DNA of 64,000 nt from Cyanidioschyzon merolae (lineage: Eukaryota), in the NCBI GenBank assembly GCA_000091205.1, contig AP006490.2, one strand, 5' to 3'. The number at the start of each line of letters is the position of its first letter. Position 1 is the first letter of the stretch. Below the pieces are notes generated by a model. That model did no database searches. It was not told where the DNA came from and was given only the letters and a program-made list of their open reading frames with translations. This document shows positions 24,131 to 49,580 of the stretch, in pieces. Position numbers and translations under genes: made by a program.

Positions 24131-24221
24131 ACCCCTTCATCCTGTTGATGGCTATCTCCAGGATGCTCTAGAGTAACGCATGGCTAGCTTCGACTTAACA
24201 ACGGCGCTAAGTGTGCGTTCT

Positions 24222-25811
24222 CTATCGGGAAGGTAGAGTTGGTGCACGCACAGGGCTCTCGCCCGGCGCAGGGTAAATTTCTTGCGAGGTTTCTACTGAG
24301 GCTACCTGCTGAGGCGCTGGATAGTCCCCACGAGCGACAACCTCAAACTGATGGGCTACACCAGGCTGAGGAATTCGTGGCTGCATGCGGTACGGCACGC
24401 GGTAGATCGGGTGCATGCTACGATTCCCGAACTCGCGTTTGTAATCAATTTTCAGATGCGCATTTTCGAAATGTCGTGTGGTTGGAACAAAGTTACCGCT
24501 TCGGTACTGTTCGATTGCTCGATCGCGAGCCTTCTCCGAAACAAAGACAATAAATGCGAAACCACGCATCGGACGATAATCCACCTTGTGGATTGGACCA
24601 AATCGAGAAAATTCAGCGCGGATCAGATCTTCAGTACTCCCCGGAGGAACGCCGCCAACCCAAATCGTACAAGCAAATGGGAGGTCATCTGCTGCTTTCA
24701 CACCGGAAGACATGGGTATATTCGCTGGTACTGCACCGGGATTCATCCCATAGACAGGCTGTGGTGGTATGAAACCCGGCATCTGGTAGCGCCCCTGCAT
24801 CATTCGGGTCACGTCCGCTGAAGCCAGCACATGCGCATTCGGCAGAGTGCCGAAAGGGTACGGGAAAAAAGGCATCATGCCTGTGCGCTGGAAGTTGCCC
24901 GCGTACGAAAGCGGTTGCGGTGATGGTGCAAACGGGTACATCGGCCCCTGGTGCGCTGCAGGCATTATCACTCTCTCCTGCTCGGCGTCGAGGCCAGCGC
25001 GCGAGAATTGTGGAACGGAATCACTTTGACCATCGCTCGTGTGGGTTGCGGGCGGCAACCAATTCAGAATGTTGCCGTCTAAATAACGCAACACATCGTG
25101 ACATATCCAGACATGGATCGCATCCTGATTGTTATTGAAGAACGCAGCATTTTTTTCGTCGCTTTCCGCCTTCACTTGCTTAAGCCTGAGCCTAAACGTC
25201 TGGATGAATGGGAATAGCGCCACGTATTTCAGCAGCGACACTGGCACAGGCTCCGCATTCCATGCGGGACGAGGCACTTCCGACACATGGATGGAACCGA
25301 CTGCTACTACGTACACGTCGCTTGTCACCGAACCTGGGTGACCTGGGCTCGTGATTTCATCCACATCGTACGAGCTGATTCGAATATCGTAGTAAACCGC
25401 TGGAAGCGCGCTCTGGATCGCTGCTTGCAACAGTCCGACCGCAGTTTCAAGCGGCATCTGCTTTGGATCAAAACTAAACTCCGAGATACGAAACTCAGCG
25501 GGCGACCCAGAGCCACCGTCAACAGAAGCGTGAGGTACATCAGCCCTGCTCCAGCCCGCTGGGGCAGCGTCGCCAGGGCTCTCGGCTGCCGGGGTACGTG
25601 TCCCCGGCAGTGCCTCCTCAGGCAGAGACCCACTGCGCAGTGGGATCCACGGCAAGGTCACTCCACGCAAAACGTAATCACATGTAAGCTGACCTTCCTT
25701 GTCTACATAGAAGCGATGAAAACCTTCCAATTGTCTGCTTAGGGCGCTGTAGTAGGTTTGCAGGAAAGTCTCAATCAGCTGTTTGTGACTGTTGCTCGCT
25801 CCTTTTCCCAT
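24222..25811 (-). CDS. NTF2-like + RRM domain protein (G3BP-like)
   Basis: The N-terminal NTF2-like fold is HKQLIETFLQTYYSALSRQLEGFHRFYVDKEG...VYVVAVGSIHV, with a long insertion. The C-terminal RRM is FACTIWVGGVPPGSTEDLIRAEFSRFGPIHKVDYRPMRGFAFIVFVSEKARDRAIEQ. Confidence 0.7.
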   Translation of the reverse strand: MGKGASNSHKQLIETFLQTYYSALSRQLEGFHRFYVDKEGQLTCDYVLRGVTLPWIPLRSGSLPEEALPGTRTPAAESPGDAAPAGWSRADVPHASVDGGSGSPAEFRISEFSFDPKQMPLETAVGLLQAAIQSALPAVYYDIRISSYDVDEITSPGHPGSVTSDVYVVAVGSIHVSEVPRPAWNAEPVPVSLLKYVALFPFIQTFRLRLKQVKAESDEKNAAFFNNNQDAIHVWICHDVLRYLDGNILNWLPPATHTSDGQSDSVPQFSRAGLDAEQERVIMPAAHQGPMYPFAPSPQPLSYAGNFQRTGMMPFFPYPFGTLPNAHVLASADVTRMMQGRYQMPGFIPPQPVYGMNPGAVPANIPMSSGVKAADDLPFACTIWVGGVPPGSTEDLIRAEFSRFGPIHKVDYRPMRGFAFIVFVSEKARDRAIEQYRSGNFVPTTRHFENAHLKIDYKREFGNRSMHPIYRVPYRMQPRIPQPGVAHQFEVVARGDYPAPQQVASVETSQEIYPAPGESPVRAPTLPSR

Positions 25812-27089
25812 GTGTGATCAACAAGCCAGAATTGGCTCAGTCCCGTCACGGCAATACTGTTCTGCGCAGTACTTGGCCCTCAGGTTCCCCGTGAAGAGTC
25901 TCTCTCTCCACGGTCACGCGTCCACCGTGAAGGCTGCCGCACAACTCGCACCAACGATAACGCTCTGTCTACGCGTATCGTAGTCGGCTGCGCGCGAGCG
26001 ATGTGACCGAAGCGCATGGAACAGCATCACGTGACATTTCACGGCGAGCCAGGCAGGGCCTGCGGATCATGCGATGCTCGCATTCCGCACGCGCACGCAC
26101 CTGGCACCATCGTCTCGAACCCGTCAGCGCAAAATGGTAGAATCGCGCTTTCCCGTAGCCTGAGACATGCCCTGAGGAACAGAGCGGCATCATCGATGGG
26201 TCCGGAAGAGACGGCCATTACAGTCGAACTTTCTAGAAGATAGCCGTCGACAAACATTGGGGACTGGCTTTTATGAGGAACGGTGCCGCTTGCACTAACT
26301 GGTATCTGGGCAGTCTGCATGTGCGCAGCGCGCTTGAGGCGCTTTCATGCGTGCTGCAGAATGGGGCATAATGCCTGCTGTGAGGGGCGAATGCACGGAA
26401 TGGGATCAATGAGGCTGGCAGCGTTTGGAACGTTTCGGGTCAACGTTGCGGTGGGAAAGTCGAACGAAGCGAGCATGGCAGGTATGCAAGCGATTCCGAA
26501 AACCCAATCATGAAACGGTTCCGAAACCGCGGCAGTCGATTCAGTGGGTACTCGATGCCTGTGGGATCGCGGCGTTCAGAAGCATCGACGGACAGCATCT
26601 GATATGAACGCGCATCCTGACGCTGTTTCGTCAACGTATTAGAGGATTGATATAGGGCCAACACATCAAGGACCGGCCTCATGCGATCAAATGAGGCTGC
26701 ATTGCGGAACCGATCCCTGTCGCGAACGGGATGGCTTTCGGATGAACGAACAGAGGTAGCGCACCCCCTGCGCATTCTATCAAGCTGCAAAGTGAGACAC
26801 GACAAGCAAAGGCACGCAAACAATCAACCTTGATGTAGGCGTCGTCCGCAAACGCCCGCTACAACACTTCTACGGATCACGTGCTTTTGAGAATCAAGGC
26901 ACGGTAGAAAAGCGAAAGCTTTCGTTACCGTCTTTGCACAGGGTCGCTGCAGCGCGCCGCCTGTTATGCTGTGTGGACGATGGCCCCGGGGGCTGGCGAT
27001 CGATCCAATTTTTCTTCATTGACAAAACGTTTACCTAGACCAGCGATCTCCGTTTATGCGCTTTTTCCTTTCTTTTTGTGTTTTTTCTC

Positions 27090-27300
27090 AGCGCACGGTG
27101 AAGTATCCATCAAACCCCTACCTCCAATTTACATTACCTATACTTCTTCTCGGATATACTGGTCGTTTCGTACGTCCAATCGTGTGCCTAGTGCCTGCCG
27201 AAAGCGACAGCAATAGCGCCTACAGCGCCGGTGCGGTCGCTGCACGGAGACAGAACGGCGTTGCTGTACCACAGAGCGCGTCGGCTCGAGGATTGATCCG
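27090..27300 (+). repeat. dispersed repeat (family 4), second copy at 49380-49580
   Basis: The block cctccaatttacattacctatacttcttctcggatatactggtcgtttcgtacgtccaatcgtgtgcc...ggcgttgctgtaccacagagcgcgtcggctcgagg here matches cctccaaattccattatttatacttgctttcgggtgtactggtcgttttgtacgttccatcgtgtgcc...agcgttgccataccgctgagggcgtcggctcgagg at 49.4 kb. By eye this is about 75% identity. Confidence 0.55.
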
Positions 27301-27388
27301 TGGGGCGCGCGGGAGCGCGTCTTCCGTTGACGCCACTCTACTTGGGAGCCGCGCTCGGCAGGTGCACCCCTGGAGAGCGAGCTCAGCC

Positions 27389-28408
27389 ATGGGTAGCGAA
27401 CTTGAGACTGGACACGCGGACCGGAGCACAAGTCGCTCTGATGATGGGCCAACGCCGACCCAAGGTTCTTTTGAACCTGGGGAAGAACCTTCGGAGCTAC
27501 ACCGTTCGCGCACGGAGGCCACGACGCCTCCGAATCGCTCGCGCCTCCGCCAGATTCTCTGCGAAGAGCCTTCCACCGAACTGGTTCACTCGTGGATTGG
27601 TCCATCTGATGAAGTGGAACAGAAAGGAACGCCGCGGAGCGTCCCAAAAACTGAAACGAAGCTTTTGACACGAACAGCTTACTCGGAACTGCGGAGAAAC
27701 CTAAAATCGGAACGGCTCAATCGTAGGCTTTTCATGAAAGAACTTGACGAGGCCGTTACTGATTTTGAGCGGACCGAAATTATTCTGCGTTCACAAGAGC
27801 GCGAGCTTCACCAGGGTCTAGCTCTCCTGAACCATCAGGCAAGTGGGTCAGCCGAGGCGAGTGCCGCCCCGAGTCCGAACAGACCGAGCCCTGAAATTGT
27901 ACAGGGCAGTTCGGTACTTCGGCGACGGAGACTGACGCCTGCGCGGGAACGCAGTTCAGGTTTAGACCCTGGCCTGGCAGCTCTGAGGCTCGATGCCGCT
28001 GATGTTGAAATTGAAAAGCTCGGGGCCGAAACGAAAGCAATTTTCCTACAAACGCAGCAGGTCTCGGCGTCACTTGCACAGATGGCCCAAGTGTTGGGGA
28101 CGCTGCTCAATTCAATGAACGATTTGAATCGAAGAGAACCGCTCGACGAAACTCGTTCTAGTCAGGGACACGCTCCGGCTGACGTGCACGAAACCAGCAC
28201 GGAGCGTCGCACGGAATCGGGTGCGCAGACCTATCCGGCTTCGTTCTGGAAGGAACCAGCATGCAGTCAGCAGCACGTTTGCCAATCGAAGAGAACGAGC
28301 ATGAGCGCGCTGCTTAAGGTCGGTGGTGCTCTCACTGTGCTATCTGTTCCTGTCTATCTGTTGGTGCTCTGGTTGCTCTTTGAAGAAATGACGTACTGGC
28401 TCGTGTAG
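27389..28408 (+). CDS. tail-anchored coiled-coil membrane protein (function unknown)
   Basis: The ORF is open from 27056, but its first ~110 codons overlap a dispersed repeat, so the Met at 27389 (MGSELETGH...) is the more plausible start. The acidic N-terminus is low-complexity. Heptad-like segments follow (ELHQGLALLNHQ..., IEKLGAETKAIFLQTQQVSASLAQMAQVLGTLLNSMNDLN). A single C-terminal TM (ALLKVGGALTVLSVPVYLLVLWLLF) lies 8 residues from the stop. Confidence 0.4.
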   Translation: MGSELETGHADRSTSRSDDGPTPTQGSFEPGEEPSELHRSRTEATTPPNRSRLRQILCEEPSTELVHSWIGPSDEVEQKGTPRSVPKTETKLLTRTAYSELRRNLKSERLNRRLFMKELDEAVTDFERTEIILRSQERELHQGLALLNHQASGSAEASAAPSPNRPSPEIVQGSSVLRRRRLTPARERSSGLDPGLAALRLDAADVEIEKLGAETKAIFLQTQQVSASLAQMAQVLGTLLNSMNDLNRREPLDETRSSQGHAPADVHETSTERRTESGAQTYPASFWKEPACSQQHVCQSKRTSMSALLKVGGALTVLSVPVYLLVLWLLFEEMTYWLV

Positions 28409-29131
28409 GAGTGAAGCGCGGGTAATCTCGCAAGAAGAATACTGATCTTTAGTGGATAGCATAGATCGCCACAGGAGACCTTGGCAGGGCCGCGAAGATC
28501 CTCACATACCCTCTGGTGCGAGACAGAAAGCGTCACGGGTAGTGGATCGCAGTCGAAGAGCGTCGGCGATGAACTGCTCCAGGGACCTGCTGTCCCTGTT
28601 CAAACGATCTCTCGAGCGCAGATGCAACAATTCACGGAAAAGATTGGATCCGAACCCTTCAACTGTACATTGCTTACAAGGGAGAAAGAGCGATGCCGGT
28701 ACATTTTCCCTTTCATACGATGGTGCAGCCTTGTGTCGCTAGGGCATTGTCGCCTGTTCCAATGATCGTTTTCTAAAAAAGCTTGCTCCAGTCTCTGTGC
28801 ACCGAGGCAACAATTGCAGCGCTGCGAAGAACGCCATAGAAGATTGCATCGACGGGGAGCTTAGCTGAACGCCTGCCGCGGCGAGCTGTCCAGAGCATCC
28901 GGTCGTATTCCGGACACAGTCCATGAGCATCGTTTCCCGCTGCGGACGCTCGCATCGAACACTTTGATATGGTTGCAGATTTGCAGCAAAATGAACCGCT
29001 TTACTTGATATTTGGAGGCGTCTGTCCGTTCTCCATGTCACAAAACGTCTCAAAACTTTACAGGTGAGAAAATTGGTAAGCGTATGGCTTCAGGCTGCGC
29101 ACCGAGCGCGCCGCGCCCTCTATAAACGCAG

Positions 29132-29839
29132 CTAGAGCTCTTCGCCGTCCGGGCACTCTTCTATACGAGGTCCTTGGCCTGTCTTGCTTTCAAGCGCTCT
29201 TGCTTCAAATCCTCGATTTGCGATTGTTCGGTTCTCCCCAGTGCTGGAGTCACGCACGGTGCGAGTTTCCTCCACGGTGCCGTCGGGGGCGCGTCTCGTG
29301 GTTACGGTTTCCTCGTAGACGCTCCCGTCCGGCCTTGTGCGTCGAATGGTTCGGGTCGACTGCGCGAAACTATGCTCAGACGTGTCTGCAAGAACGCTAT
29401 CGAACGTACTGAATGCCCCAAAATGGCTATCAAGGTTGCGGAAAACAGAGTCCATCTCCGTCATCATGCTGCGCATCATAGAGAATGGATCACTAAAGCT
29501 ATCGCCGCCCCAGATACTCAACGCGTCCCGGTTCAGTAAGTCGCGATGGTGGTGTCCCGGGTAGTCCCACGCGTCCACGCCCGCCGAGCTTTGCGCTTCG
29601 TTCTCGTCGGGAGGCTCTTCGATTATGGGTCTCGCACGACTTTCAACCCCATAGCCCAGGTGCGTGTCGTCGTAAAAGTCGTTAGACGAACTAACGTTCT
29701 CTGTGCGCGAATTCGTGGACCGATCCTTTGATGAGTTTCGGGAGCTGAAAAGTCTTCCGAACCCTGGCATTTTCCGCAGAGCGACACCTACAAAACGAAG
29801 GCTCGCGATCAACTGGTACAGTTTGCACGCGTCAATCAT
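29132..29839 (-). CDS. myeloid leukemia factor (MLF) family protein
   Basis: DPFSMMRSMMTEMDSVFRNLDSHFGAFS...EHSFAQSTRTIRRTRPDGSVYEETVTTRRAPDGTVEETRTVRDSSTGENRTIANRGF...KTGQGPRIEE aligns by eye with the conserved core of animal MLF1/MLF2 (HSF-x-S...TRRAPGG-x-ETR...DS-x-G...KTG..EE). The likely start is the Met at 29770 (MPGFGRLFSS..). Confidence 0.65.
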   Translation of the reverse strand: MIDACKLYQLIASLRFVGVALRKMPGFGRLFSSRNSSKDRSTNSRTENVSSSNDFYDDTHLGYGVESRARPIIEEPPDENEAQSSAGVDAWDYPGHHHRDLLNRDALSIWGGDSFSDPFSMMRSMMTEMDSVFRNLDSHFGAFSTFDSVLADTSEHSFAQSTRTIRRTRPDGSVYEETVTTRRAPDGTVEETRTVRDSSTGENRTIANRGFEARALESKTGQGPRIEECPDGEEL

Positions 29840-30974
29840 AGATCGGCTCGGGGCGTCACGGCGCGGCAGAGGATCGCGGATGCGTTTCTGATTGTCCGCG
29901 GTCTCGCGCTGCCCAGCGGTGCATCTGCTGGTGCTCGGGGATCTCTGGTTGGACCCACCGAACTTACACCGAACAGATTGCTATGTCTCAGCTATAGCGC
30001 GGGCGATCTGTCACCCGACGTCCTTGCCTAACGGTCTCTATGCGAGGCATATCTGGTTCGATTCATCGACCGCATTCCGTAAGAAACAGGTTACGTTTCT
30101 GGATTGGGAAGCGCTGGGTAGCTCGCGAATCTGCCGAAAGCACGCCTTCTGCACTTTCCGCGATCAAGGCTGTGTCATCCGGAACATGGCAGGGTATGGT
30201 ACTGCATGCCTGGCGTGCCTATACAAACTGCGGACGGGATCGGGTCGATGCGATTCCACTACTGGAGAGTGCGCGCGCCGTTGCAGGGCAACTGTTTTCC
30301 GTCGCCATGCGAATGCAATCGGTCGTGTTGCCGGACCCAGGTGCAAGGCGCAGAAGTCCAGTGTACCTACGACGATTGCGATGCAGAACGTGCGATGACG
30401 CGCAACGTGCCTGCGACGGGCATGGCACCTGTAACGCCGCTGGATCCCCCGAGTCCCTCCTCTATAAAGGGGTTCGATCTGGAGCATGTGATGCATAGAC
30501 GCGCCTTTAGACGATTTCAGAAATTATTATAGATTCGAGCCAGTTTCATCGCTACCTCGGCAACTAGTTGAGGTCATCGATCTGACACCGCACGAATACA
30601 GACACGCAGCCAAGGCGGGCATCATCGACGATTTTTCTGGTGCAGGATCGATGCATCCAGTCCCCGATTTTGGTGTTCAGGCTATCGGCGTCCATTTGCG
30701 ATATCGAAGACGCTCTCCCGGGCGCGGCTGGCAGTCGTGAAATCGGGCATTCCGTGTTTCTGTCAACGCTCTGTCGACCAAGAGAGCATATGCGCTCCTG
30801 CTGCCGCCGCAGCAGCTGCCTGGCGCAGGTGCGACGTCCAAGCCGCAATCGCCGCCCGCATCCGTGCCCGGCTGCCGTCACGTGACATGGCGTGCGCGGC
30901 GTCCACGCCGACGCGCGGGTTGGCCATAAGAATGGCATTGACGGGTATTGAGTATATCCTGCGCTCGGTCGAGA
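29840..30974. promoter_or_regulatory. GC-rich divergent intergenic region between MLF-like (-) and RPS14 (+) genes; putative bidirectional promoter
   Basis: This is 1.1 kb between two divergently oriented start codons. It is very GC/CpG-rich, with spurious ORFs open in all six frames (29892..30398, 30040..30498, 30164..30496 and others), as is typical of GC-island sequence rather than coding. Confidence 0.3.
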
Positions 30975-31427
30975 ATGGCATCGAAAAAGCGTCAGGCAGT
31001 TGTTTCCGAAGAGGTTTCTCAAGGGCCGCAACTCCGTGAAGGTGAAGAGTGCTTTGCGGTTTGCCACATTTACGCATCTTTCAATGACACCTTCATCCAT
31101 GTCACGGATCTGTCGGGTCGAGAGACCTTTGTCCGGCGGTCTGGCGGCATGGAAGTGAAGGCCGATCGGGATGAGTCCTCGCCGTACGCAGCCATGATTG
31201 CCACACAGAAAGTTGCTGAGCGTTGTAAGGAGCTAGGCATTACTGCGTTGCATATCAAAGTGCGTGGCACTGGCGGATCCAAGGCTAAAACCTTTGGGCC
31301 GGGAGCTCAGGCCGCTATCCGGGCGTTAGCTCGCAGCGGGATGAAGATTGGACGCCTCGAGGACGTGACGCCCATACCACATGACGGTACCAGGCGAAAA
31401 GGAGGTCGCCGTGGTCGAAGACTCTAG
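30975..31427 (+). CDS. RPS14: 40S ribosomal protein S14 (uS11)
   Basis: [150 protein letters not shown] is near-identical to eukaryotic RPS14 over its full length. The ORF opens at 30948 and the likely start Met is at 30975. Confidence 0.95.
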
Positions 31428-32381
31428 GCTGTACTGTCCGCTGGGGGCACACTGCGGCGCTTCTCTGTTACTGGCGTCGCTTAGAGTATGACATCGAGGG
31501 TAGCTGTTGGCGTCTCCGAGCGTTTTCCGCTTTATCCAGCGTTCACGATCTATCTACAGTGTAGCGCCCCAAATTCTGAGAACTGGAAAGAAGCGAGCGC
31601 AAATGCGTTCCCTTTCTGTGAGCCCTCTTGGCTGCTGCGAGACAACAGCAAAGCCACACTGAAAAGGCAGAGCTCCGACAACATTTTGGGGTCTTCCAAA
31701 ACTTGATAGGATCCGTGCGCGCCCCAGATAAACGATTTTACCACGTATTTCACTTGTGACAGTGGACGTTTTCACGGGAATCTCCTCGAAGCACTGGGCA
31801 GCCGCGTCGGGGTACGCACTTGCATGTTTTGGCGATGCCCGATCTACACAGGGCTCGTTGCATCGAGTCGCATGGCGTCGGTCCTCGCAGATAGCATCGT
31901 AAGATGAGGCATCTTGAGGCAGCTTCAGTCTTGACTGGCCTCCGTGGAGTGGTTGGCATTTGCCGGTGTCACGATCGAATGTACATGCCAAGGTTCAGCG
32001 ATCGCAGATACATCTTTGTGACTGCTGGTTCACTCAGAGCATCTTGCTGCTCTCCGTTCGCTACGTACAATGCATACTGATTGAATCACCGGGGCAAAAT
32101 GAATCAGTTCTGTCATGTTGCTGGCATCGCGCAACCCTAACTCGCGCGCCGTGCGTCGTGTCGCATCCGGTCGCTCTACAGCTGGCAAGGGACTATGCAG
32201 GCAGCAACTGCACTGCTGCTGGCGACGAGGCCTATGCCAGCCCGAGGAGGATTCTCTGCTACAGGTTCTGGTCAGACGATTTTCATCGTATGCTGCATAA
32301 AGAAGAGGGAGCTACATCATTAATTTGATGTTTTTTTAAGAAATACAACCACGCCAGGAGAAAGGTAAAAGTTCCCTGAAC

Positions 32382-33170
32382 ACAAGCGCATACGATAAAG
32401 TTTGGGTTTCTTGCCACTGTCATCAGCACTAGCCTTTGGGGGGGGGGGGGTTCTCTGCACCTGCTTCCTTTTCCGCTCTCATATCTACGGCTCGAAGTAT
32501 CCCGATCTCTCGCTACCTTCTAGCGCCGTTCTCAGCTGTCCTTAGATATTGATTTCGGCGTTAAAGTCCCGACTTTGCCGCTTCCAACTGTTGTTCACGC
32601 AATGCATACACAGGAAAAAGTTGCAATCTACGCTTCGTTCGTTTTTTATCATCTTCATACACAGCCTGGTTGCCCATTTGCAGTGTTGAAAATTGACTGT
32701 GATCTGATGTTCGCTTGTGTCGAGCACAACGTCCGCACCGAGAACCGCCCTGTGGCACGTAAACGCACGCTTCGTCGCTCAGTATCTGCCCTTGATGGAT
32801 ACAGAAGGCTTCTATCGATGCTGCGCTACTTTCCGCACCCGGTTTCGTACCCTGGGATCACGTGCTTCTTTGTGGAGACCCCCTCGACGAGTACGCTGTC
32901 CGCTGCAGAAGCGAAACGCTATTCTACTCGATAGAGGATTTGCGGAATGCAGTGTTGTCCGTTGAGCCACAAGTACCGAGAAGAAGATTCAAGCGGGGGC
33001 GAAAGCCAGGAAATTTCGATTCGTTTATGCTCCCTTTGTGCAAAGAGTTGACGCGCTCCCCACTGGAAGTGGTTGATGGTGTGGCTGAAGTCTCAGACCA
33101 AGACCCTTGCCGTGCAAAAAAGAGGGTCAGAAAACCTCCGGGCGCATATCCCGTGGCGGGGATCATGATG
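32382..33170 (-). mobile_element. family 2 TnpB-like element, longest fragment (C-terminal ~200 aa equivalent + terminal module)
   Basis: ORF 32542..32727(-) ends ...HCKWATRLCMKMIKNERSVDCNFFLCMHCVNNSWKRQSRDFNAEINI (Zn finger + RuvC-III). Upstream, 32924..33166(-) contains LLLGTCGSTDNTAF, which is RuvC-I-like. The + strand 32384-32530 carries the conserved module (gcgcatacgataaagtttgg...cttgccactgtcatcagcac...G13 run...ctgcacctgcttccttttccgctctcatatctacggctcg). Confidence 0.55.
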
Positions 33171-34177
33171 GTGCGGATTGCCGTTTTCTCGATTGGTACA
33201 GAGATGGTGGTAGATTTTTCGGAGCGATCCGATTATTTGGCGCGGAAAGTTCAGTAAACATTGGGTACGAATGTGCGAAGCAGTTGTCAACGGCCGAGGT
33301 CGCGTTATGTACGTCCTCATTCCAGCGGCGCGGACTGCTGTGCCTACGAGTCGCCTTGACACAGGCAGATCAATATTTTACAGAACGCTCGCTTCGGGCA
33401 TGCCAAATGTGAGGAAAGGAAGAAGATTGGATGCTCATGTGCTTACTAATTGGATGATGATTCGATTACTTTAAAAGTCCCTGTTCGAGAGCGTCGCAAT
33501 GCACCTTGATTCCGGTGACCAAACGAATTTCAGCAACAGAACATCCAAGGGGCCATTTCCAAAAAGCAACATACAGACAGGAAACCTAAAATTACGTACG
33601 AATCCCTAATCACCTATTAATACACTTCGCGTGTCCACTGTTCAAGAAGAATGTTCGGAATATAATGAAAATTCAACAACAGAGCGAGCAGTTCAGTCTT
33701 CCATTGTAGCCTGACAAATATGCACTGCCTACCAATCGATCACCAGCGGATACATTTGGGAGAAAATAGTCCGTTCGTGCGAACTGAAGTTTGCCGAGCC
33801 CGCCGTGAGTGCCAACCACGACACCTGCAGCGCCACCGCTGGCGGAGCATGAAGAAAAAACAGCTTTACCCGTTCCCTGTCGGACTTTGATTCGACAAGT
33901 GCAGCGTTTGGTTGCACATTTACGCGCTTGGAGGTCATTGCGCTCGCTCGTACCCTTCATTTTTATAAACGAACCTGGTACCCGTCCACAACTCGCCGCT
34001 GAAGCCGTGCGACGCGTATCGCAGCCGATGGCGGCATCATGTCCAGTCCGCGCCGGGCGTCTGGCGCGCAGGCGTCGCTCCAGCCGCTCGAGGCGCTTGC
34101 CAACAGATTGAGGCCGAGCGCTGAGCTCCGAACTTCAGCCGCAACAGCGATACGACCTTTGGGCTCGTTTACGAAAC

Positions 34178-35422
34178 ATGTTCTGCATAAGTGAACCGTT
34201 TACCCTATGTGCTTCACATACGGAACACCATAGGCGTGCATTGTGTGGCAAACAGTCAGTGTGGGGATGCTTTACAAACACGACTAGCTGGTTTGGGCGC
34301 AACCGAGGGGTCCGGAACTCGGCGTTCCTCGCTGGTGCAGCGGACGCGTTCAATTCACGTAGCAAAGCCCGGAACCTGTCGAGACGAGCTTCACTATCGA
34401 TGAAACTTCCAATGTCGTGTCGTGCTGATACGATCGGGTCGAAGCGTTGCCTGGTCATAGGTGGGACGCGCTTCAGCGGCGTCTATCTGGCGAAGGTGCT
34501 GGGAGACCTCGGCCATGAGGTCGTCCTTTACAACCGAGGCAGCAAGCCCCTTCAGCGTGTACCAAACGAGCCGGAGGGTGAGTTTGCGGCAAGAGCTGCT
34601 ATGAGCTCGACCATTATAGGTGACCGCACAAAGCCCGATGAAGTGAAGGAGAAGCTAGCATCGGAAAATTTTGATGCGATCTTTGACATGAATGGACGAG
34701 AACTCGAGGATACTCGACCATTTGCTGAGCTCTTTGCCGGAAAGATCGATCACTATGTCTACATGAGCAGCGCTGGTGTCTACTTGCAGTCGCCGGTGCT
34801 ACCACATATCGAAGGCGACGCCTGCGATCCCAAATCCCGTCACTTGGGGAAACTTCAAACGGAGGAGTTCCTAGATAGCCACGGACTGCCGTGGACCGCC
34901 ATCCGCCCGACCTACATATACGGTCCTTCGAACTATAATCCCATCGAGGAATGGTTCTTTGCTCGTATCGCGGAAGATCGTCCGATCCCAATTCCAGGCG
35001 ACGGCACCTACATGACTGGCCTGGGCCACGTGGCAGATCTGGCCAATGCGTTTGCCGCCGTACTCGGGAATCCCAGGGCAGTAGGCAAAGTCTACAACAT
35101 TCAGGATCGCAAGTCGGTAACGTACAATGGTATTGCGAAAATGTGCGCTCTTGCGATGGGACGCGATCCCGAAAGCATCCGCATCGTCCACTACGATCCT
35201 AATCGTGTGGATATCGGGAAGGCCAAGGCGTTTCCCTTTAGGTTGCAACACTTCTTTACGAGCGTGAACCGTGCGCTGAGAGAACTGGATTGGGACGTGG
35301 ACTTCGATCTCTTGGATGGTCTCCGAGATTCGTACCATAACGATTTTTTGCCCAAAAAACAAGCAGGAAAGCTTCAAGTAGACTTCAAAACGGACGACTT
35401 GATCCTCTCCCAGGTTTCTTGA
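34178..35422 (+). CDS. CSP41-like atypical short-chain dehydrogenase/epimerase (chloroplast stem-loop-binding protein 41 family) with N-terminal extension
   Basis: Rossmann start is KRCLVIGGTRFSGVYLAKVL. The match to CSP41a/b is strong: HYVYMSSAGVY...PHIEGDA...EEWFFARIAEDRPIPIPGDGTYMTGLGHVADLANAF...VYNIQDRKSVTYNGIAKMCA...IVHYDPNRVDIGKAKAFPFRLQHFFTSVNRALRELDW. The ~90-aa N-terminal extension begins MFCIS... Confidence 0.8.
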   Translation: MFCISEPFTLCASHTEHHRRALCGKQSVWGCFTNTTSWFGRNRGVRNSAFLAGAADAFNSRSKARNLSRRASLSMKLPMSCRADTIGSKRCLVIGGTRFSGVYLAKVLGDLGHEVVLYNRGSKPLQRVPNEPEGEFAARAAMSSTIIGDRTKPDEVKEKLASENFDAIFDMNGRELEDTRPFAELFAGKIDHYVYMSSAGVYLQSPVLPHIEGDACDPKSRHLGKLQTEEFLDSHGLPWTAIRPTYIYGPSNYNPIEEWFFARIAEDRPIPIPGDGTYMTGLGHVADLANAFAAVLGNPRAVGKVYNIQDRKSVTYNGIAKMCALAMGRDPESIRIVHYDPNRVDIGKAKAFPFRLQHFFTSVNRALRELDWDVDFDLLDGLRDSYHNDFLPKKQAGKLQVDFKTDDLILSQVS

Positions 35423-37646
35423 ACTTTGCTTGATCAGAGGAGCTGAGGCCACATTGAACAATAACCAAGTCTTACGCTTATGAGCACACTCCATGGTATG
35501 TGTACTGGATTCGGGACAGAAGCGCTAGAGGGGCGTGTGCTCCACCTGTTGGCGGGCCACGGAAAGAGCGTGCCAGTAACGTTGCCGCCGGTACTGCTGA
35601 CGGAGATTTTCGTACTCATACATGTGGACGCACAGCTTAGCCTCCTGTTCAGTAGGGCGATCCCTCAGTATCCATTTATCAGGTAGTTGAATTGGTATCA
35701 CCATCGTGGAGCCGGATGCACTCGGCCTATAGTATCTGACAGGGGAACAGTTTCATGCGATGCACGAACTTGCGTAAAAAATGCCCTCTCCGGTCTTTGC
35801 GAAAGCTCTTGTCTATTACGAGAACGGCGCTCCGGCTCATTGCATCATACCGGCGCTCAACTTTGCGTCTGGGCCTCGATCAGAGCGGTTTCGCTGCATA
35901 TCAGGAGTGCTTACGTACAAAGCAAATTTCATATTGAAATGGAGCGGATCTATTCAGCTAACTTGGGTATACGCGCTGAAGTTTTGGTTTCTTCCCACTG
36001 TTACCAACACCGGCGTTTGCGAGCTTTATCTGCAACTGCTTTATTTTCTCCTCTCTAGGCTTCGACATAAGATACACTGGTCATTCATTTGCCTCCAGAT
36101 CCGATTCAGCAGACGGATGATGTTGATGGCATGCTAAAATCCTGATTTCACCGCTTTCGACAGTAGTCCACATATTCAACGTGCCGGCTGTATACACGAC
36201 TGCCTTGCATACCATTTTCATCTCTATACACGGCATCGGTGCGCCCTTCGCATCTTTAGCACTTGCCCGTTGTCAGCTGTTCCTGTGTATCCATCAAACC
36301 TCCTCCGATGGTCGCTGCATGGCGCGTGAACGTCTACTTTATCGCTCGGCAGAAGTCCTTGACGGTTCCAGGAGGTGTTCGTGCATGCTTTCCTCCGTTT
36401 CTGCGCCAGATGCCATGCCTACGATCAGGGGTTTCTTCTGTAAGATCCCTTGGGCGGGTACTCTGTGTTCTGCTTGCGCAAGCGCACGCTGTTCCATTCG
36501 ATGACGCAACATTCGCCTTCTTGCACGCTCTTCATTTTCTCAAAACTCTGACTACAAAGCGTTGGCTCAAGCATGATGGGCATCGAGTTACATAAGACAC
36601 TCGCGGGTATCCTATCCATACATTCCACCCGAAAGTGATGCTGCGACGAAGGCTTCTGCAGAAGCCGTCTGTTTCGCTCGCTTCGCGAACGATTCTTTTA
36701 TTCCTTTCCTTCCTCTGATACTAGATTTAGGGGCACTCGAGCACAAGTTCTGGCGTTGGGCACAAGTCGGAGGGTTCGAAACCCGTGACCCCAAAGCGTT
36801 GCAGTTTATCGCAGGTCGGACCGCTCTTCAGGTATCATGGTGGCGCATGTGTGGCGCGTCGCTCTCCCGCGTTCCGACCTATGCAGATCGCGTTCGGTGG
36901 CAACTTTACGATGCTATGTGTCTGTATTAATCGTTATTCCTCTCGGAATTTCTCCTCCTAAGAAAGGAAGCGTATGAGCTCTAAGAGAGCCGTGAATCGT
37001 TTTGTGACGTTTGCGTTCGATGTCGGCGGGTGTCCGCACGAGATCGGTTTTGATTGAGGACAATATATCTCCTCCACGTTGCGCGAACCTCCCTTTCCCT
37101 CCTCCTGCTTTGCCATAGCATTTTTCTTGAACTACAGTCTCTTTTTTCCTACCGCGGTTCATGAGCGCTTTAACAAAGGAGGGCATCGGTTCGATCCTTC
37201 TTTACCCGTCAAGTGCATGCGCCAAACGATAAAGCAAGCCGCCATGCGCCACAGAGCGGCGCATGGAACAGAATATGTGGTGGACAGATCAGAGCACATG
37301 ACCATAGTCAAGTGTTAGGGATGCGAAGGGCGCACAAAGACTGGTTACCCTGAGAATGAAAATGGCTAGCCAGGCATAGCCCCCAGCTTTCAGATGTACA
37401 TTGCATGTGTCGAGAACATCAGGCAGCGGCGCAAACCGGACCTTTATCACTACTATCGATATCCTTCGACAAATGAGAACGGCGCTCGAGCGACACGAGA
37501 GACCGATGTATTTCAAGCCGCAGAGAATGAAAAGGAAAAGACAGCAGTCGCGGATAACCATCCCAAAGCCTTCTGCATGTGACACTGGGGAAGACCCGAA
37601 GTTTAGCGTGTGACCGCACGAGTTAGCTGAGTGGACCCGTTCCATT

Positions 37647-38384
37647 TTAGCCTGACATGGGTTTAAAGCGACGCGCAACTGGCTTGACGACGAACTGGTC
37701 TACAAGCGGCGCCAAGAGCAATGCACCCGCAATGCGAAACGGACGGGAGAAATTATTCAACAACCACATGCCCGCCACAACTTTCAAAAAGTTTTGCCAG
37801 GTTAGTGGTGCATTATCTGTCGCCCTTTTGAAAGTGATAAGTGCGATAACGAAGCTCGCTGAATAAGTGATTGCGTCGAAAAAGCCGTACGCGAGGATTG
37901 CAGCGAGCCCGTATGAACGCAGCCGTTGAAGCGCTGTTTCCTTCTCCGGGAACAAGTTAGTGAATGCACCCTGCAACCGCTTCCAAAACCCCTGTCGTTT
38001 CCGCGCTGTGTTCATGGCCTGCTCCGGAGCGCTGTCTCTCGGTCTGACAGCGTTATTCGACTGCTCCAAGCGCCGTTGCTCCAGCTGCTCAAGGTACGAC
38101 AAAGGGCGCGTACTAGTCGAGCTTGAGGAGCCATCCTCCATAGGCGGACGCCGCGTACTTTCAAGCCATTTCATATATTGGTCGGTTTGGCCGGTGCATG
38201 AAAGTCGCAACGCAAACGGAGGCGTCCTGTGGAAGCCTCGTGGAAGCTTCCGGCGAGCGCACTCTGAATCCACTGTTCGGTGTCCGTGCACGATGAAGTC
38301 GTTACGCGCTTGTTTGACTGAGGAAAACCTTTTTGCGTGCAGCGGCGCTGTGAACTGTGTTGCCGTGTTCAGAATCAAGAACAT
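37647..38384 (-). CDS. predicted multi-pass membrane protein of unknown function
   Basis: The 245-aa ORF has a charged, S-rich N-terminal half. The C-terminal half is hydrophobic (LRSYGLAAILAYGFFDAITYSASFVIALITF...LKVVAGMWLLNNFSRPFRIAGALLLAPLVDQF). A weak resemblance to DUF1279/FAM210-type proteins is not established. Confidence 0.3.
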   Translation of the reverse strand: MFLILNTATQFTAPLHAKRFSSVKQARNDFIVHGHRTVDSECARRKLPRGFHRTPPFALRLSCTGQTDQYMKWLESTRRPPMEDGSSSSTSTRPLSYLEQLEQRRLEQSNNAVRPRDSAPEQAMNTARKRQGFWKRLQGAFTNLFPEKETALQRLRSYGLAAILAYGFFDAITYSASFVIALITFKRATDNAPLTWQNFLKVVAGMWLLNNFSRPFRIAGALLLAPLVDQFVVKPVARRFKPMSG

Positions 38385-38819
38385 TATGCTGGCTCCTTCT
38401 TGTTCTTCTCACGAGAGCAGCAGCGCAAAATAACCGTTTCTTCGAGTGATTTGAACGCAGGGTCGTCCAGGGCAGTCTCTCGTAACATGATGGACATAGC
38501 GGACAGTGCCGCATTGAATGTTAGGGCGCTCTGCGCGCTCCCTCGTGATAGCTCTTGGATTAGAGACTTCAACCAGTAGTGAAGCGAACGCTGGTTTGAC
38601 CGGGAAACCTCGGGTAGAGAGCGGGCTAGTATAGTCTAGCACAGCGTTTTCGTGGGAATGGAACGACGAGTTTTCGAAAAGTCGCGGACTCTTTGTCGCG
38701 CAACGCGGGGCTGCTCAGCGTCCTCGCAGTGCGTGCAAGCAGCAGGGTCAGAACGAGGCAGATTGGCGATTTGACCACTGCAGCTTGGCCACTCTTTTGG
38801 AGCAGTTTGCGTACTCCTC

Positions 38820-39836
38820 TCAGAACGTTTCCCTTGACAGCAGATGTTTGGCGTACGGGAGGACGCGAGCGCGCCACACCGCGCCGCGCCTCGAGAAATC
38901 GACTGCCACGTCTCTGCCGAGTGGTACGGACCAGGATTTTTGCATGACCCCAGGCGGCGAGCTCGGAGGTACCGCACGACGGCGCAAAGTTTCGGCTCGC
39001 CGGCGGCAACGCACCCTTTTGTTTGCAAAATAATCGTTCACCTGCCGCAGGGTTAACCCGCTTCGAAAGGCGAGTTCGCATTTCTCCCTCTCGGAAGGGT
39101 ATGGGTGATCAAAATGCTTGAAAAACCAGTCTTCAAGAATAGAACGGTCTGGGCAGTACGTGCAACTCCGTGATTGTAGAGTATCGCTTGTCTCGCGAAG
39201 ATCTCGCTTTGTATTGATGGATATATTCCCGCTGTCTTGGCTGCTGGAATCGAGATGCGCTGCAGATATAGGACTCGCTGGTCGGCGGCGACCAGCGCCC
39301 GTCGCTTCGGCATCTGGAAGGAGCAAGTCGAGCGTGTCCGCGGGTGTGTTGAAACGTTGCAGAGCGACCCAAGCCTGCAGGTTCCGTACATAGCAAACCG
39401 CCGCAGCGAGGGTATCCAGGATCGTAAGTATTTGTAGCTCCTCGGCGGAGGAATCTGCCGGCGGTGCCACTACTACATCTTGTACGCCGCTTGCTAGTTT
39501 TCCGAAGAAGGAATGGCTACGTACGAGGGCGAGCAACTGATGGAAAGGTACCAGCAGACCGACGGCACATACGTTCACTGGTCGCTGAAACTGTGACTGG
39601 AGACACGTATGCATTGCGCCAGCTGACTTTCGAGTTCCCCAGCAGCTGTTACCCGATCCAGGTGATAGCAGTGGCTTCTCTGCTGCTCCTCCTTGGCTGT
39701 CCATCGAAGAAACCTCGGCCTGTATGGCCGCTGCCAGGGTCTCAGGCCCGCTGTTGATACGATTTCGCTCTGTTTGTGTCTGTTTGAATGTGCAAGGAGG
39801 GTACATAATATGGCCATCCGACTTGGCGAACGCCAA
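38820..39836 (-). CDS. TALE-class homeobox protein (KNOX/BELL/MEIS-like)
   Basis: The homeodomain at about 38997-39164 is SILEDWFFKHFDHPYPSEREKCELAFRSGLTLRQVNDYFANKRVRCRRR. It has the diagnostic three-residue P-Y-P loop extension between helices 1 and 2, and the WF-x-H-x3-PYPSE pattern. Helix 3 reads DYFANKR rather than the canonical NWF-x-N-x-R. Confidence 0.75.
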   Translation of the reverse strand: MAFAKSDGHIMYPPCTFKQTQTERNRINSGPETLAAAIQAEVSSMDSQGGAAEKPLLSPGSGNSCWGTRKSAGAMHTCLQSQFQRPVNVCAVGLLVPFHQLLALVRSHSFFGKLASGVQDVVVAPPADSSAEELQILTILDTLAAAVCYVRNLQAWVALQRFNTPADTLDLLLPDAEATGAGRRRPASPISAAHLDSSSQDSGNISINTKRDLRETSDTLQSRSCTYCPDRSILEDWFFKHFDHPYPSEREKCELAFRSGLTLRQVNDYFANKRVRCRRRAETLRRRAVPPSSPPGVMQKSWSVPLGRDVAVDFSRRGAVWRARVLPYAKHLLSRETF

Positions 39837-40318
39837 CAGCCATACTGTTAAAAAGACAACTCAGGAACACGAAACGCTCTATCGAACTGGAACGGGTGGC
39901 GGCTTCTGAAAGTGGTCCATTGCCGCGGAAAACAGCTGGACTATGTCACGGCTGCTGGCGATTTGAGAAACAGCCGCGGCGAGCCCTGGCGCGTCCAGGA
40001 TCCGCGTTGTCCTTTTCGTCTATAATTGAGAGTCAGATTAAAATAGGACATTTAGCGACACGTTTTTTCCAGCATATTCTTTTTCTTTCGAACCATGTTG
40101 TTAGATACACAGCCTCGATACTCGAATTGCAGCAATAAGGGCCTACGGATTCATAGACCTTTTTGACGCTCTCGGTCTTCATTTTCGAAAAGTGCGAGCG
40201 ACTCTTTGCCACTGGAAATCGTTCCGCGACGGGAATCAAGATGATGCGCGGTGCCTTCGAACAAGGTTTCGTAAAATAACCAATTCCATGATCAGATTCA
40301 TTTGTGAAATCATCGACG

Positions 40319-40351
40319 CCTCTCCTCTCCTCTCCTCTCCTCTCCTCTCCT
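40319..40351. repeat. (CTCCT)n microsatellite, about 6 units
   Basis: ctcctctcctctcctctcctctcctctcc seen directly in the sequence. Confidence 0.9.
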
Positions 40352-41596
40352 TACCTATCGCCTGCAACAAGCAAGCCTTCTTCAAGTGCACGATCTTTTT
40401 TCTCATGAATACCCTTGGTCACGGTAATTCGCGACCCTGGAGGGACAAGCGAAGAACTCGACGTCGTCTCATGAGGACTTTTTACCATCTCACGCCGGAA
40501 GTTTTCTGTATATGTACCGTCAAATAATCGATTCCATTCGAAGCACAAATCCTCCCCTTTTTGTGGCCAAAGAAGACACTCTATTCGACAGCAACAGAAT
40601 GATAGATTTCACGGGAAATGCTCCCAGAGGTCCCTGGATCTTCTGTTTCCATGGAACGGCGCCTCGGATTCGGAACTGAGCTATCGCAGCGATCGCATCC
40701 AGTGGGGACCGCATAAGCGCTTTGCACGATGTGAGCATAGACGGATCGAAATTTCTTGACTTTTACCCAGAATGAAATTTTTTCAGCTACTTGTTCCTTC
40801 GTGATAATCATCACTTTCCACAAAAATCCTCTATTGAATCGAACAGCTTGCGCTTTCATGTGCGGCAGGTAATGTTCTGGCGGAGAATATAGCCCCGGAA
40901 AGCCCATTAACGCACGATACAGCATCGGGCGAGGAAACGGAGGAGCGTATCCAGAGAACCTTTCTGTACTCTTCTATTGCATGCACGGAGTGGTATAGCA
41001 AGCGTTCACGTGCCAACGGTCGATCCCGGAGAAAAACGAGGAGTCGTGGACAAATGATAAAACCTGAAGACAGTCAAGTGCCAACTGTGCAAAGGCGCGC
41101 ACCGGGGTTGCATACAAATAAGTTGACAATGGCAAGCGATGTGTAGATCGCAGCTACCACCTGTGAATGAAATGCGTTGACAACTGCGGGAATCAGCGAA
41201 ATCGGGAAATTAACGCTGCTACCAACATCCTTCGAATGCTGACTACTCGGCGCACGATAAAACCTATGAAACGAGCAATATATCCGAGAAGAATGGCTTA
41301 TGGAACTTGGAAGCAGAGCGTGGTATGATGGATGGTTCACTGTGCGCTGATATCAAGCGCGCTGTTGTGGAACGATGGCCTGCGTCAACGTCTTGACAAA
41401 TTGATACGAATAACAGCTCGCGTTGTACGAACAGGAAGCATTCACTTGTCAGAGTGAGCGTGCATGAGTTGCTCATAGCCGCACCGGCGTCAAACGGGGA
41501 AGAATCGCTCTTCGCTGAACTCGAACACCTGGCTGACAGACCCTACAGCAAAAGAACGTACAACTGAGACGCGCCCCGCGTGAAACTGTTTCTGCT

Positions 41597-42124
41597 ATGT
41601 TTCTTACTGCTGCGCCCTGGTCTCTGCGACGGAGTAAACGGAGCTGCAGTCAGTGTCCGCGAACGCTCTTTTGTTGCACAGGTACGACGCGTATGGGAGC
41701 GGAGGGGTCACTGTGGCGTTTGGCAAATGCGGGACACGCGTTGCTGTTAGTAGACCACGGCAGCCGGCGTAAAGAAGCGAATGAAGCGCTTTTCGATATG
41801 ATTGAGCTATTGAGGCGTAGAGCACCACCCGGAATAATCATCCACGGCGCTCACATGGAAATGGCAGAACCGACGCTGGACGACGGTTTTCGCGCCTGTG
41901 TGGAGGCCGGAGCGCGGCATATCGTTGTGGTGCCGTATTTTCTCGCTCCAGGGAGGCACTCTACGACCGACATTCCGAATATGGCTGCAGAAGCAGCTTC
42001 AAAGCACGCCCATGTTACCTATACCGTGACCGCGCCACTGGGTGTACATGAAAGCATCGGCAACGTGGTCATTGAGCGGGCAATGGAAGCCATGGGGCTG
42101 GACGCTCTGCGAGAGCGCGACTAG
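41597..42124 (+). CDS. CbiX/SirB-type sirohydrochlorin ferrochelatase-like protein with short N-terminal extension
   Basis: ALLLVDHGSRRKEANEALFDMIELLR...IHGAHMEMAEPTLDDGFRACVEAGARHIVVVPYFLAPGRHSTTDIPN matches the small CbiX/SirB chelatase fold (HGSR...EA...E-P-L...vvPlFL-G-H---DIP). The N-terminus is MFLTAAPWSLRRSKRS.... Confidence 0.7.
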   Translation: MFLTAAPWSLRRSKRSCSQCPRTLFCCTGTTRMGAEGSLWRLANAGHALLLVDHGSRRKEANEALFDMIELLRRRAPPGIIIHGAHMEMAEPTLDDGFRACVEAGARHIVVVPYFLAPGRHSTTDIPNMAAEAASKHAHVTYTVTAPLGVHESIGNVVIERAMEAMGLDALRERD

Positions 42125-42580
42125 CGCGACCTGGTTTGGAGCCATACGCCCGAAGCGTATTAGGAAGCTCGCGGGAATGTACGAGCGCTGGTGCGTGAAG
42201 TGGAATCATCGGGGTAAGGCAATATGGAGGCCTGAGTCTCGTCCGCTCGTGACTTTGCATCCAGGTCGCATCTCAGGAAAGGTACGTAGAAAATGTTCGA
42301 AGTTGTGCTGCAGGGTCTCTTGCTCCGTAATCCAGGAATCGGCACTGGCCGAGTTCAGTGACGTACAGCCGGATACGGGACTTGTATGTAGCGGCCCGCT
42401 ACACCACTGGTAGCAACGCGCGGACCAGAAACTTGAGATCTCTACTCGAAAGTTGCCGAAACTCCTTGAATGGTCGGCATTGTTCTGACTGAGAGCGAGA
42501 CAGAAGCTGCGTGCACGTGTCAAGGACCTGATCTATCCCGCATGGGCATACGCAATCCGCTTACAGACCACGAAGGACTG

Positions 42581-42595
42581 TTGTTGTTGTTGTTG
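42581..42595. repeat. (TTG)5 microsatellite
   Basis: ttgttgttgttgttg seen directly. Confidence 0.85.
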
Positions 42596-43776
42596 GAGGC
42601 ATCCAGGAAAATACCTGCCGGGGAGCCGCTGCGCGAGCCCGTGCGAAGAGCTGCGTCACTCAGATTTGTAAGGTCACTGGCTGGTACCTTGACCTGCGGC
42701 AAGTCTTCTTTCCATGACGAGGTGCTCGCTTGACTCCATGCTCGATGCGTGAATACGCTGCAGATCAGTGAAGAGTTCCCTTGCGAGGACGAATGCATGT
42801 GATAGCGCTTTCGCCTGTTGAACAAGGCTGCCGAAGAACATGACGGCTCCTTAAGGATTCTGTTCGCTTACCCAATGACATGAACGAGCATGCTCCGCAC
42901 CACAGCGGTAACCTCGCGAAGTTCCGACGAAAAACTTGAAGAATATTTTACGAGACCGCGTCCACTGAAATGATGCATCTGACGTGACGCATCTCCCGGA
43001 TCGAGTCCCATTCGACACCAGAGACGGGTCGTTCAACTACTCGGCGAACTCTTTGATCGCGGTTGAGTTCAGCGCCCACAAGGTGATGTGCGCGCTGCGT
43101 ATACAACCAACAATACCCTGAAACTCTCCGCAGAGAGGCATCATTGGGCATTGCAAACTATCAGGTGCGTTCCAGGTAACTCGCCCGTGCCTACAAGAAA
43201 GAACACTCAAATTTTGAGGTTTACGGCGTCTTTTCCGTGACATCAGGCATCCGTGGAAGTCCTGAAGCCCTCTGACTCCTGACTGGCTGTGTCTGCGCAT
43301 CCCTGGAACACAGAAATGTTTCATGCGTGTTTCACCTTAAGCGAGTTGCGAAAAAATCACGTGAACAGGCGAGCATAGAGTCCACGGGCATCCCCGATCT
43401 GGGATTAACCCCATGAATTTTGTCCCAAACGATGATACAGACTTTAGAATGCATTCACTGCTCCCGAGACGTCGAACATGCACCATGAACTCATGAAGTC
43501 TTCGACCGACGCCCGCAAGGGTATGGCAATGGCATTATCTCTCAATGCAGCGTTTGCACGGTGCTGTAGACATCACAAAGAACGTTCGCGGCAGGCACGT
43601 AGCACCTGAAGAATCGTGTAAACTGTCGAGTTGACGTCCGCGAGGTTCCGCCAAAGCGGGTCTGTCTATGTGCAGTGCTAGCACGGACGTTATTGGCATC
43701 ACAGCGGACACTCACGGCTGGCGTAAGGCTCTTTGGCGATCGTACGAACTGACCAGCATCCCCTAAGGTATGTTTC

Positions 43777-43808
43777 GGTGGTGGTGGTGGTGGTGGTGGT
43801 GGTGGTGG
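43777..43808. repeat. (GGT)n microsatellite, about 10 units
   Basis: ggtggtggtggtggtggtggtggtggtggtgg. It gives poly-Pro and poly-Thr runs in the spurious minus-strand ORFs 43542..43919 and 43699..44019. Confidence 0.9.
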
Positions 43809-46600: not shown

Positions 46601-46913
46601 CGAACGTTCGAGGGACTACTTTAGTATTGAGTATGAGCATTTTACTGGAACGCGTATCGCCTCTGATGAAAAGAAACAGTTGTCAGGAGAGAATGGACTG
46701 CATTCTAGACTGGAGGAAGACGCTGGAGCGATACGGTGCAGATATCCAGCAAAGCCACAGCGCCGTACCTATCCACGTAAAACGATTCTCCCAAGCAACT
46801 GGTAAACTATAATAGGGTTCTTTATTGTGCATAGCTGATTATATGGTTCTTTTAAGGAAGACTTTTCAAAAAAGGTTTGCAAACATCACGAATGTAGACT
46901 GTTGAATTATGAA

Positions 46914-49379: not shown

Positions 49380-49580
49380 TCATGCTGCTGCACCCGACCT
49401 CCAAATTCCATTATTTATACTTGCTTTCGGGTGTACTGGTCGTTTTGTACGTTCCATCGTGTGCCGAGAACTTGACTGCACCCGCCTTAACGCTTATACC
49501 GCCGGAGCAGATGCATCACGGAGGCAGAACAGCGTTGCCATACCGCTGAGGGCGTCGGCTCGAGGCGTGGTGCAACTGAC
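49380..49580 (+). repeat. dispersed repeat (family 4), copy of 27090-27300
   Basis: See the 27090-27300 entry. ORF 49351..49689 reads PLFILAFGCTGRFVRSIVC...ASRRQNSVAIPLRASARGVV. ORF 27056.. reads PILLLGYTGRFVRPIVC...AARRQNGVAVPQSASARGLI. Confidence 0.55.

Follow-up and report, generated by a model that had tools for sequence, protein, structure and literature searches.

The stretch of Cyanidioschyzon merolae DNA analysed here, 64,000 nucleotides of contig AP006490.2 that are referred to below as the window, encodes several bacterial-type enzymes as long uninterrupted open reading frames (ORFs), among them three genes whose N-terminal extensions and early phenylalanine residues bear on protein import into the plastid. 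The three are all read from the plus strand: CMH047C, a CSP41-type atypical SDR (short-chain dehydrogenase/reductase) or epimerase-fold protein (34178..35422); a CbbY-like HAD phosphatase (20965..22071); and a short CbiX/SirB-type sirohydrochlorin chelatase (41597..42124). Of the ORF products of the window, eleven are identical, residue for residue and over their full length, to annotated proteins of C. merolae 10D. The matched accessions fall within the BAM79736-BAM79750 series (BAM79736, 37, 40, 41, 42, 43, 46, 47, 49 and 50), the locus tags CMH044C, CMH045C and CMH048C are given for matched proteins, and all matches lie on one record of 739,753 bp. These exact matches, the consecutive accessions and the single record place the window on chromosome 8, in the nuclear genome of C. 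merolae 10D, the best-known red alga with a complete genome sequence and a model species. The original prediction, made from the letters of the sequence, had read a primary-plastid nuclear genome of rhodophyte or glaucophyte type out of this stretch, and the matches to a rhodophyte show it to be correct.

From CMH042C to CMH051C of C. merolae 10D (BAM79741-BAM79750) the protein sequences, their order and their starts are the same as in the window, with no sequence difference, and the proteins of a near-identical environmental strain (contig L001) differ from those of the window at a few residues. The metagenome gene call that represents the 90% cluster carries an artificial upstream extension. 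Since the translated ORFs of the exactly matched genes cover the deposited proteins in full, each of these genes consists of a single exon, as had been supposed from the reading frames; introns are nearly absent from the C. merolae genome, and the single-exon genes of the window agree with this. Third codon positions are likewise not strongly GC-biased, as originally noted: GC3 is 0.545 across 12 genes as compared to a G+C content of 0.529 (~53%) for the window.

CMH047C encodes 414 aa, matches BAM79746.1 / XP_005536032.1 exactly, is deposited as "similar to mRNA binding protein CSP41 precursor", and is named, along with one other gene, as a CSP41 homologue in a study of the C. merolae transcriptome (PMC3372377). 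A Pfam Epimerase match covers residues 92-308, and the protein is 54-60% identical to red-algal proteins (Rhodosorus, Porphyridium "CSP41b", Compsopogon, Galdieria) and ~57-60% identical to cyanobacterial homologues named "mRNA-binding protein". Two motifs, GGTRFxG and SRHxGK, are invariant across the alignment of CMH047C with its homologues. On comparison with the canonical motifs, the first takes the place of the dinucleotide-binding glycine motif and the second that of the YxxxK of extended SDRs. A 12-residue insertion in the E-x-x-F-x-A-R region of CMH047C occurs only in red algae and in lineages of red origin and is absent from cyanobacteria. Among solved structures the PDB sequence search returned remote epimerases only, at E values of at least 4e-7, and found no solved CSP41. 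Judged from its sequence relatives CMH047C is a member of the CSP41 family, clearly of cyanobacterial type, and it is predicted to be an RNA-binding, endoribonuclease-like SDR protein.

The CbbY-like protein (368 aa, BAM79741.1) is matched exactly from the ATG at 20965 and is deposited as "hypothetical protein, conserved"; its locus tag, CMH042C, follows from the accession order. The start at 20938 that was first proposed for it is merely the first TTG after a stop, and the annotated protein begins MSQKLEE at 20965, whereas the coordinates first given for the CSP41 and CbiX genes stand. Its HAD domain begins at residue 113-115. In the PDB search Arabidopsis CbbY (4UAV) is matched at E = 2e-51 and Rhodobacter CbbY (4UAR) at 1.5e-36, the next HAD enzyme (3KBB) being far weaker at 6e-14, and plant "CBBY-like protein" entries make up the overwhelming majority of named database matches; NCBIfam gave sub-threshold matches to the beta-phosphoglucomutase family only, which are uninformative for naming. 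The HAD-IA fold of Arabidopsis At3g48420 (4UAV) and of Rhodobacter sphaeroides CbbY (4UAR/4UAT) aligns with the C. merolae protein from end to end of the catalytic domain, and the DCDGVL nucleophile motif lies in the aligned part; unlike Arabidopsis CbbY, the algal protein has a far longer presequence and, at about residues 255-275, an insertion of ~17-20 residues. On this evidence the protein is closer to characterised CbbY than to other HAD-IA enzymes and the name CbbY-like is justified; from its sequence relatives it is predicted to be a CbbY-type sugar-bisphosphate phosphatase. Homologues of CbbY that have been characterised clear away xylulose-1,5-bisphosphate, which inhibits Rubisco. A literature search for CbbY together with Cyanidioschyzon found no paper.

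The third protein (175 aa, exact match to BAM79749.1; UniProt M1V7G5) is also deposited as "hypothetical protein, conserved"; the UniProt name is "sirohydrochlorin cobaltochelatase", and the tag CMH050C is inferred. Pfam CbiX (PF01903) matches residues 54-159 at E = 1e-28, with 100 bits against a cut-off of 22, and the PDB matches are SirB (6JV6/5ZT7) and CbiXS (6M25) at E = 6e-17 to 7e-14. A single CbiX domain and a conserved DHGSR motif are common to the algal protein, Bacillus subtilis SirB (5ZT7/6JV6) and Archaeoglobus CbiXS (6M25), the DHGSR aligning with the GHGSR of SirB, i.e. with its metal-binding His motif. Compared with Bacillus SirB the C. merolae protein is half-sized, with one domain, and has in addition a eukaryotic presequence; by analogy with CbiXS it is presumably a homodimer. 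The NCBIfam matches to Ni and Co chelatases all fall below their cut-offs. The protein is most likely the ferrochelatase of siroheme synthesis, a SirB role that is assigned because this pathway would be needed in a plastid. Literature searches for CMH042C and CMH050C found nothing. The three family names proposed beforehand are thus borne out by the Pfam and PDB matches and, for CSP41, by PMC3372377.

Each of the three proteins extends at its N-terminus beyond its bacterial homologues, as was claimed from the reading frames. The extension of CMH047C is ~88 aa, since the cyanobacterial proteins, which lack it, begin in the alignment at the position of R90; the presumed transit peptide, residues 1 to ~88 with the start MFCISEPF, is encoded by 34178..34441 (plus strand). 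In the CbbY-like protein residue 115 is the aligned counterpart of residue 3 in Rhodobacter CbbY, giving a presumed presequence of ~112 aa (20965..21300, plus strand), and in the CbiX protein residue 47, about where its domain begins, is the counterpart of residue 9 in Bacillus SirB, giving a presumed transit peptide of ~46 aa with the start MFLTAAPW (41597..41734, plus strand). The ratios of K+R to D+E in the extensions of the CSP41, CbbY-like and CbiX proteins are 15:4, 24:10 and 9:2, respectively, and Ser plus Thr number 11-19 (18 in CSP41, 11 in CbiX); such a basic, Ser/Thr-rich and acid-poor composition looks typical of a transit peptide.

Relatives of C. merolae provide a test of whether these extensions are coding. 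The CSP41 of a relative with 74% identity is likewise 414 aa long, starts MLCF, and keeps its frame open through a poorly conserved presequence. In a second, more distant and more compact relative a 72-kb locus (ENA ERZ1300892 NODE_68, hereafter L002) keeps the neighbourhood of genes for ribosomal protein S14 (RPS14), CSP41, a CMH048C-like protein, a homeobox protein, CbiX, PPi-dependent phosphofructokinase (PFK) and the HAD protein. Protein identity at L002 is 65% for CSP41 along the whole alignment, or 73% within the conserved domain, and 56% for CbbY, and open upstream frames of similar length are kept for every gene of this neighbourhood; the CbiX orthologue has an equally long extension and starts MAFMNACC. 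Because frame and length are conserved in relatives despite diverged sequence, translation of the N-terminal extensions is indicated.

At the annotated starts Phe is found at position 2 of both the CSP41 (MFCISEPF) and CbiX (MFLTAAPW) proteins, confirming the two Met-Phe starts first noticed. The chance of Met-Phe at two of three starts is ~0.003-0.007 for a Phe frequency of 3-5%, a figure to be read with the fact that the genes were chosen after the fact. Conservation of the Phe is the stronger evidence. Red-algal CSP41 proteins start MFC, MLCF, MEVAF, MDLGF, MVAAF and MKMGF, with the Phe held within positions 2-5 while the remainder diverges, and further relatives start MAAFVG, MAFAAP and MSAPAF. 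A Phe-based transit-peptide motif of red algae and glaucophytes has been described, and the Phe is thought to be read by an Omp85/Toc75-type channel of the outer envelope (PMC7038456, PMC2222254, PMC3095331); the Phe starts of the window and of the orthologues fit this published motif. With known transit peptides of this type (Cyanophora pFNR, which starts MAFV, and those of Porphyra and Porphyridium) the CSP41 and CbiX extensions share an early Phe in a hydrophobic context, a net basic charge and the lack of a signal peptide. They differ in that the Phe directly follows Met, whereas M-x-(x)-A/G-F-V is commoner among the orthologues, and the presequences of the three C. merolae proteins are long, 46-112 aa as compared to 30-45 aa in the CSP41 proteins of Rhodosorus and Porphyridium.

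A signal-peptide core was sought as the maximum Kyte-Doolittle mean over 11 residues within the first 40 aa, a crude measure and not a trained predictor. By this measure no such core is seen in CSP41 (1.29) or CbiX (0.67), whereas the positive controls, i.e. orthologues from the brown-alga/raphidophyte genera Ectocarpus, Fibrocapsa and Discosporangium, whose plastids are secondary, score 2.30-3.09 and show a plain signal peptide with an aromatic residue after it. For CSP41 and CbiX the absence of a signal-peptide-like leader, which had been claimed for all three proteins, is therefore sound at this level of measurement.

The best explanation overall is, with high probability, that these are C. 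merolae nuclear genes for bacterial-type proteins that carry Phe-type plastid transit peptides. The CSP41, CbbY-like and CbiX proteins would be synthesised in the cytosol, each bearing at its N-terminus a cleavable transit peptide of basic composition, with many hydroxylated and few acidic residues and an N-proximal Phe in a hydrophobic context, and this Phe would be recognised by the Omp85/Toc75-type channel in the outer envelope of the primary plastid. From the sequences we infer plastid localisation of the three proteins and use of their annotated start codons, in each case the first ATG; Phe-dependent import in C. merolae would follow by analogy with the algae in which the motif was described.

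Several observations weigh against this explanation. The first Phe of the CbbY-like protein occurs only at residue 19 (...GKVLCAFTV...), after an acidic stretch (MSQKLEE), unlike in known Phe-type transit peptides, so that the N-proximal Phe, taken at the outset as the hallmark of red-algal and glaucophyte import, holds for CSP41, CbiX, the orthologues and the literature and fails at the annotated CbbY-like start. From that start the protein also scores 2.48 in the Kyte-Doolittle measure by way of VLCAFTVLLSM, like a weak signal-peptide core, which makes it borderline in this respect; because C. merolae has a known primary plastid, the signal-peptide question is moot. In each ORF the annotated start is no more than the earliest ATG, and prokaryotic gene callers choose internal Met residues on the metagenome copies (M75/M79 for CSP41, M33 for CbiX), which gives 340-aa and 143-aa versions of these proteins. 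Finally, a literature search found no localisation, N-terminal sequencing or transcript-start data for the three proteins.

The position of the CbbY-like Phe varies with a single codon. Codon 15 (21007..21009) is GTG (Val) in the window and ATG (Met) in the near-identical environmental strains P0208 and P0213 (...STGKMLCAFTV...), where initiation at this codon would yield MLCAF, with an N-proximal Phe at position 5. Orthologues of the CbbY-like protein begin MHVRMGFV (MHVRMGF at L002), MHRERAGFA, MVQRSEPRPQAFV and MAFVAAL; the Phe occupies residues 7-12 in MHVRMGF, MHRERAGF and MVQRSEPRPQAF, and an earlier position in MAFV.

Foremost among the alternatives is the reading of the extensions as artefacts of annotation, with translation from the internal Met residues that the gene callers chose, or from M25 in the CbbY-like protein; the Met-Phe codons would then belong to upstream DNA that is open by accident and goes untranslated. 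Besides the starts at first ATGs and the shorter metagenome gene calls, it can draw on the length of the open stretch upstream of M33 in CbiX, since 32 open codons would arise by chance with a probability of ~0.2, estimated as (61/64)^32. The 88-residue extension of CSP41 is in frame and of equal length in the 74%-identical relative, however, and in every relative examined the open upstream frame takes the form of Met followed by Phe within 1-11 residues in an A/G-F context. The composition of the extensions, which resembles that of transit peptides, speaks against it as well, and internal starts would leave plastid-type enzymes without any targeting signal. Conservation of frame and length together with the conserved Met-(x)n-Phe starts thus weakens this rival, which we regard as improbable.

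A slightly less probable alternative accepts translation from the annotated starts and holds that the Met-Phe is coincidental, that the presequences target mitochondria or both organelles, or both of these together. Only three genes were looked at, and these were picked after the fact; early Phe is found in other genes of the window too (CMH044C, which starts MRFF, and CMH048C, which starts MF); and a basic, acid-poor composition is common to mitochondrial presequences. Against coincidence stand the low chance figure for two Met-Phe starts and the retention of Phe in orthologues while neighbouring residues diverge. Against mitochondrial targeting, the characterised homologues act in plastids, CSP41 on chloroplast mRNA and CbbY on the Rubisco inhibitor, and it has been proposed in the literature that red algae tell plastid signals apart from mitochondrial ones by the Phe. 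A source in some lineage whose plastid is secondary and of red origin (ochrophyte, cryptophyte, haptophyte or apicomplexan relative), in a glaucophyte or in a green alga has next to no probability for this genome and is already refuted by the exact matches to C. merolae 10D; ochrophyte CSP41 and CbbY homologues do score nearly as high as red-algal ones and the hydrophobic run in the CbbY-like N-terminus scores like the secondary-plastid controls, but CSP41 and CbiX lack the signal-peptide core that their orthologues in Ectocarpus, Fibrocapsa and Discosporangium possess.

The genome, the CSP41 annotation and the Phe rule for transit peptides are all already published, and plastid targeting by Phe-type transit peptides is accordingly nothing new as the main observation. 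The small additions are functional names for two "hypothetical" genes (CbbY-like and SirB-like), a candidate in CMH048C, and the start-codon polymorphism of the CbbY-like gene. Taken jointly, the proposal that the two genes are the red-algal plastid CbbY and SirB, that CMH048C is a plastid membrane protein and that the polymorphic CbbY-like start codon shifts an import-critical Phe is a tentative one, which we think somewhat more likely to fail in one of its parts than to hold in all. If true, a plastid CbbY would remove a Rubisco inhibitor next to red-type Rubisco, and the GTG of strain 10D, by placing the import-critical Phe at position 19 instead of position 5, would provide a natural test of the positional requirement for Phe. 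There is also value for calibration in that a red-algal nuclear genome was correctly recognised, from sequence alone, on the basis of three plastid-type ORFs and two Met-Phe starts.

CMH048C (37647..38384, minus strand; exact match) lies between the CSP41 and homeobox genes and encodes a 245-aa hypothetical orphan protein that starts MFLILNTATQF and contains hydrophobic segments towards its C-terminus. At L002 the orthologue starts MVLAFCGSAAV. A Pfam search at E <= 1 gave no family for CMH048C and nothing useful for CMH044C or a 184-aa ORF of the window. CMH048C is possibly a fourth member of the set and a candidate uncharacterised plastid membrane protein. The window also encodes the cysteine synthase OAS-TL2 (8011..9183, plus strand), which is extended at the N-terminus by ~50 aa (MVQHAANGHAQCSFRPL...) and in which Phe first occurs at residue 14.

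Nuclear proteins of the kinds usual in eukaryotes are encoded by other long ORFs of the window: XPF/ERCC4, ribosomal protein S14 (Pfam S11), a cyclin, the PPi-dependent PFK, a KN-type homeobox protein, a C2-domain protein of 2,226 aa, an RRM protein and an Mlf1IP-like protein. Scans of the whole window found no tRNA gene and, at the gathering threshold, no Rfam family. The corresponding genes occupy ~17 kb at L002 as compared to ~40 kb in the window (20000..62000), and the additional DNA of C. merolae 10D consists largely of degenerate repeats. Gene order at L002 also differs, the HAD gene adjoining PFK and the C2-domain gene adjoining Mlf1IP, and its G+C content is visibly higher.

Among the repeats of the window a dispersed element of ~2.1 kb is present in three degenerate copies that are 73-88% identical (76..2112, plus strand; 15709..17874, minus strand; 50220..52190, plus strand). 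The copies lie in long gene-poor stretches and are full of stops and frameshifts; because they are purine-rich on the sense strand, they account for the skew peaks in the composition profile. Translation of the repeat consensus yields VVGADPGNTN, then after ~170 aa DEFRTSC..C and NRDFNAATNI, and the resulting D...TS-C...C...RD arrangement agrees with the TnpB/Fanzor motif in the literature; Pfam and PDB searches with this translation gave no match. The Fanzor1 element CMe-1A of C. merolae is reported in ~150 copies, each ~80% identical to the consensus (PMC3627910), and from the motif pattern and this literature only the ~2.1-kb repeats are probably copies of CMe-1A.

Smaller repeats are also present. 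Two stretches of 76-78 nt from the 5' part of CMH044C (27116..27291) recur with 78-82% identity at 49393..49565, ~22 kb downstream in a gene-poor region, which points to a partial paralogue or a pseudogene fragment. An intergenic pair of 241 nt (10151..10391 and 23339..23579) is 72% identical, and a four-copy intergenic family of 78 nt, at 7045, 11668, 33463 and 53307, is 62-74% identical. A tandem array of five 47-bp units with 94% matches (62028..62259) is found just downstream of the C2-domain gene (54971..61651). The Mlf1IP-like ORF (29132..29839, minus strand) encodes 235 aa from its first ATG as compared to 212 aa in the deposited CMH045C, and the metagenome copies are 235 aa in length.

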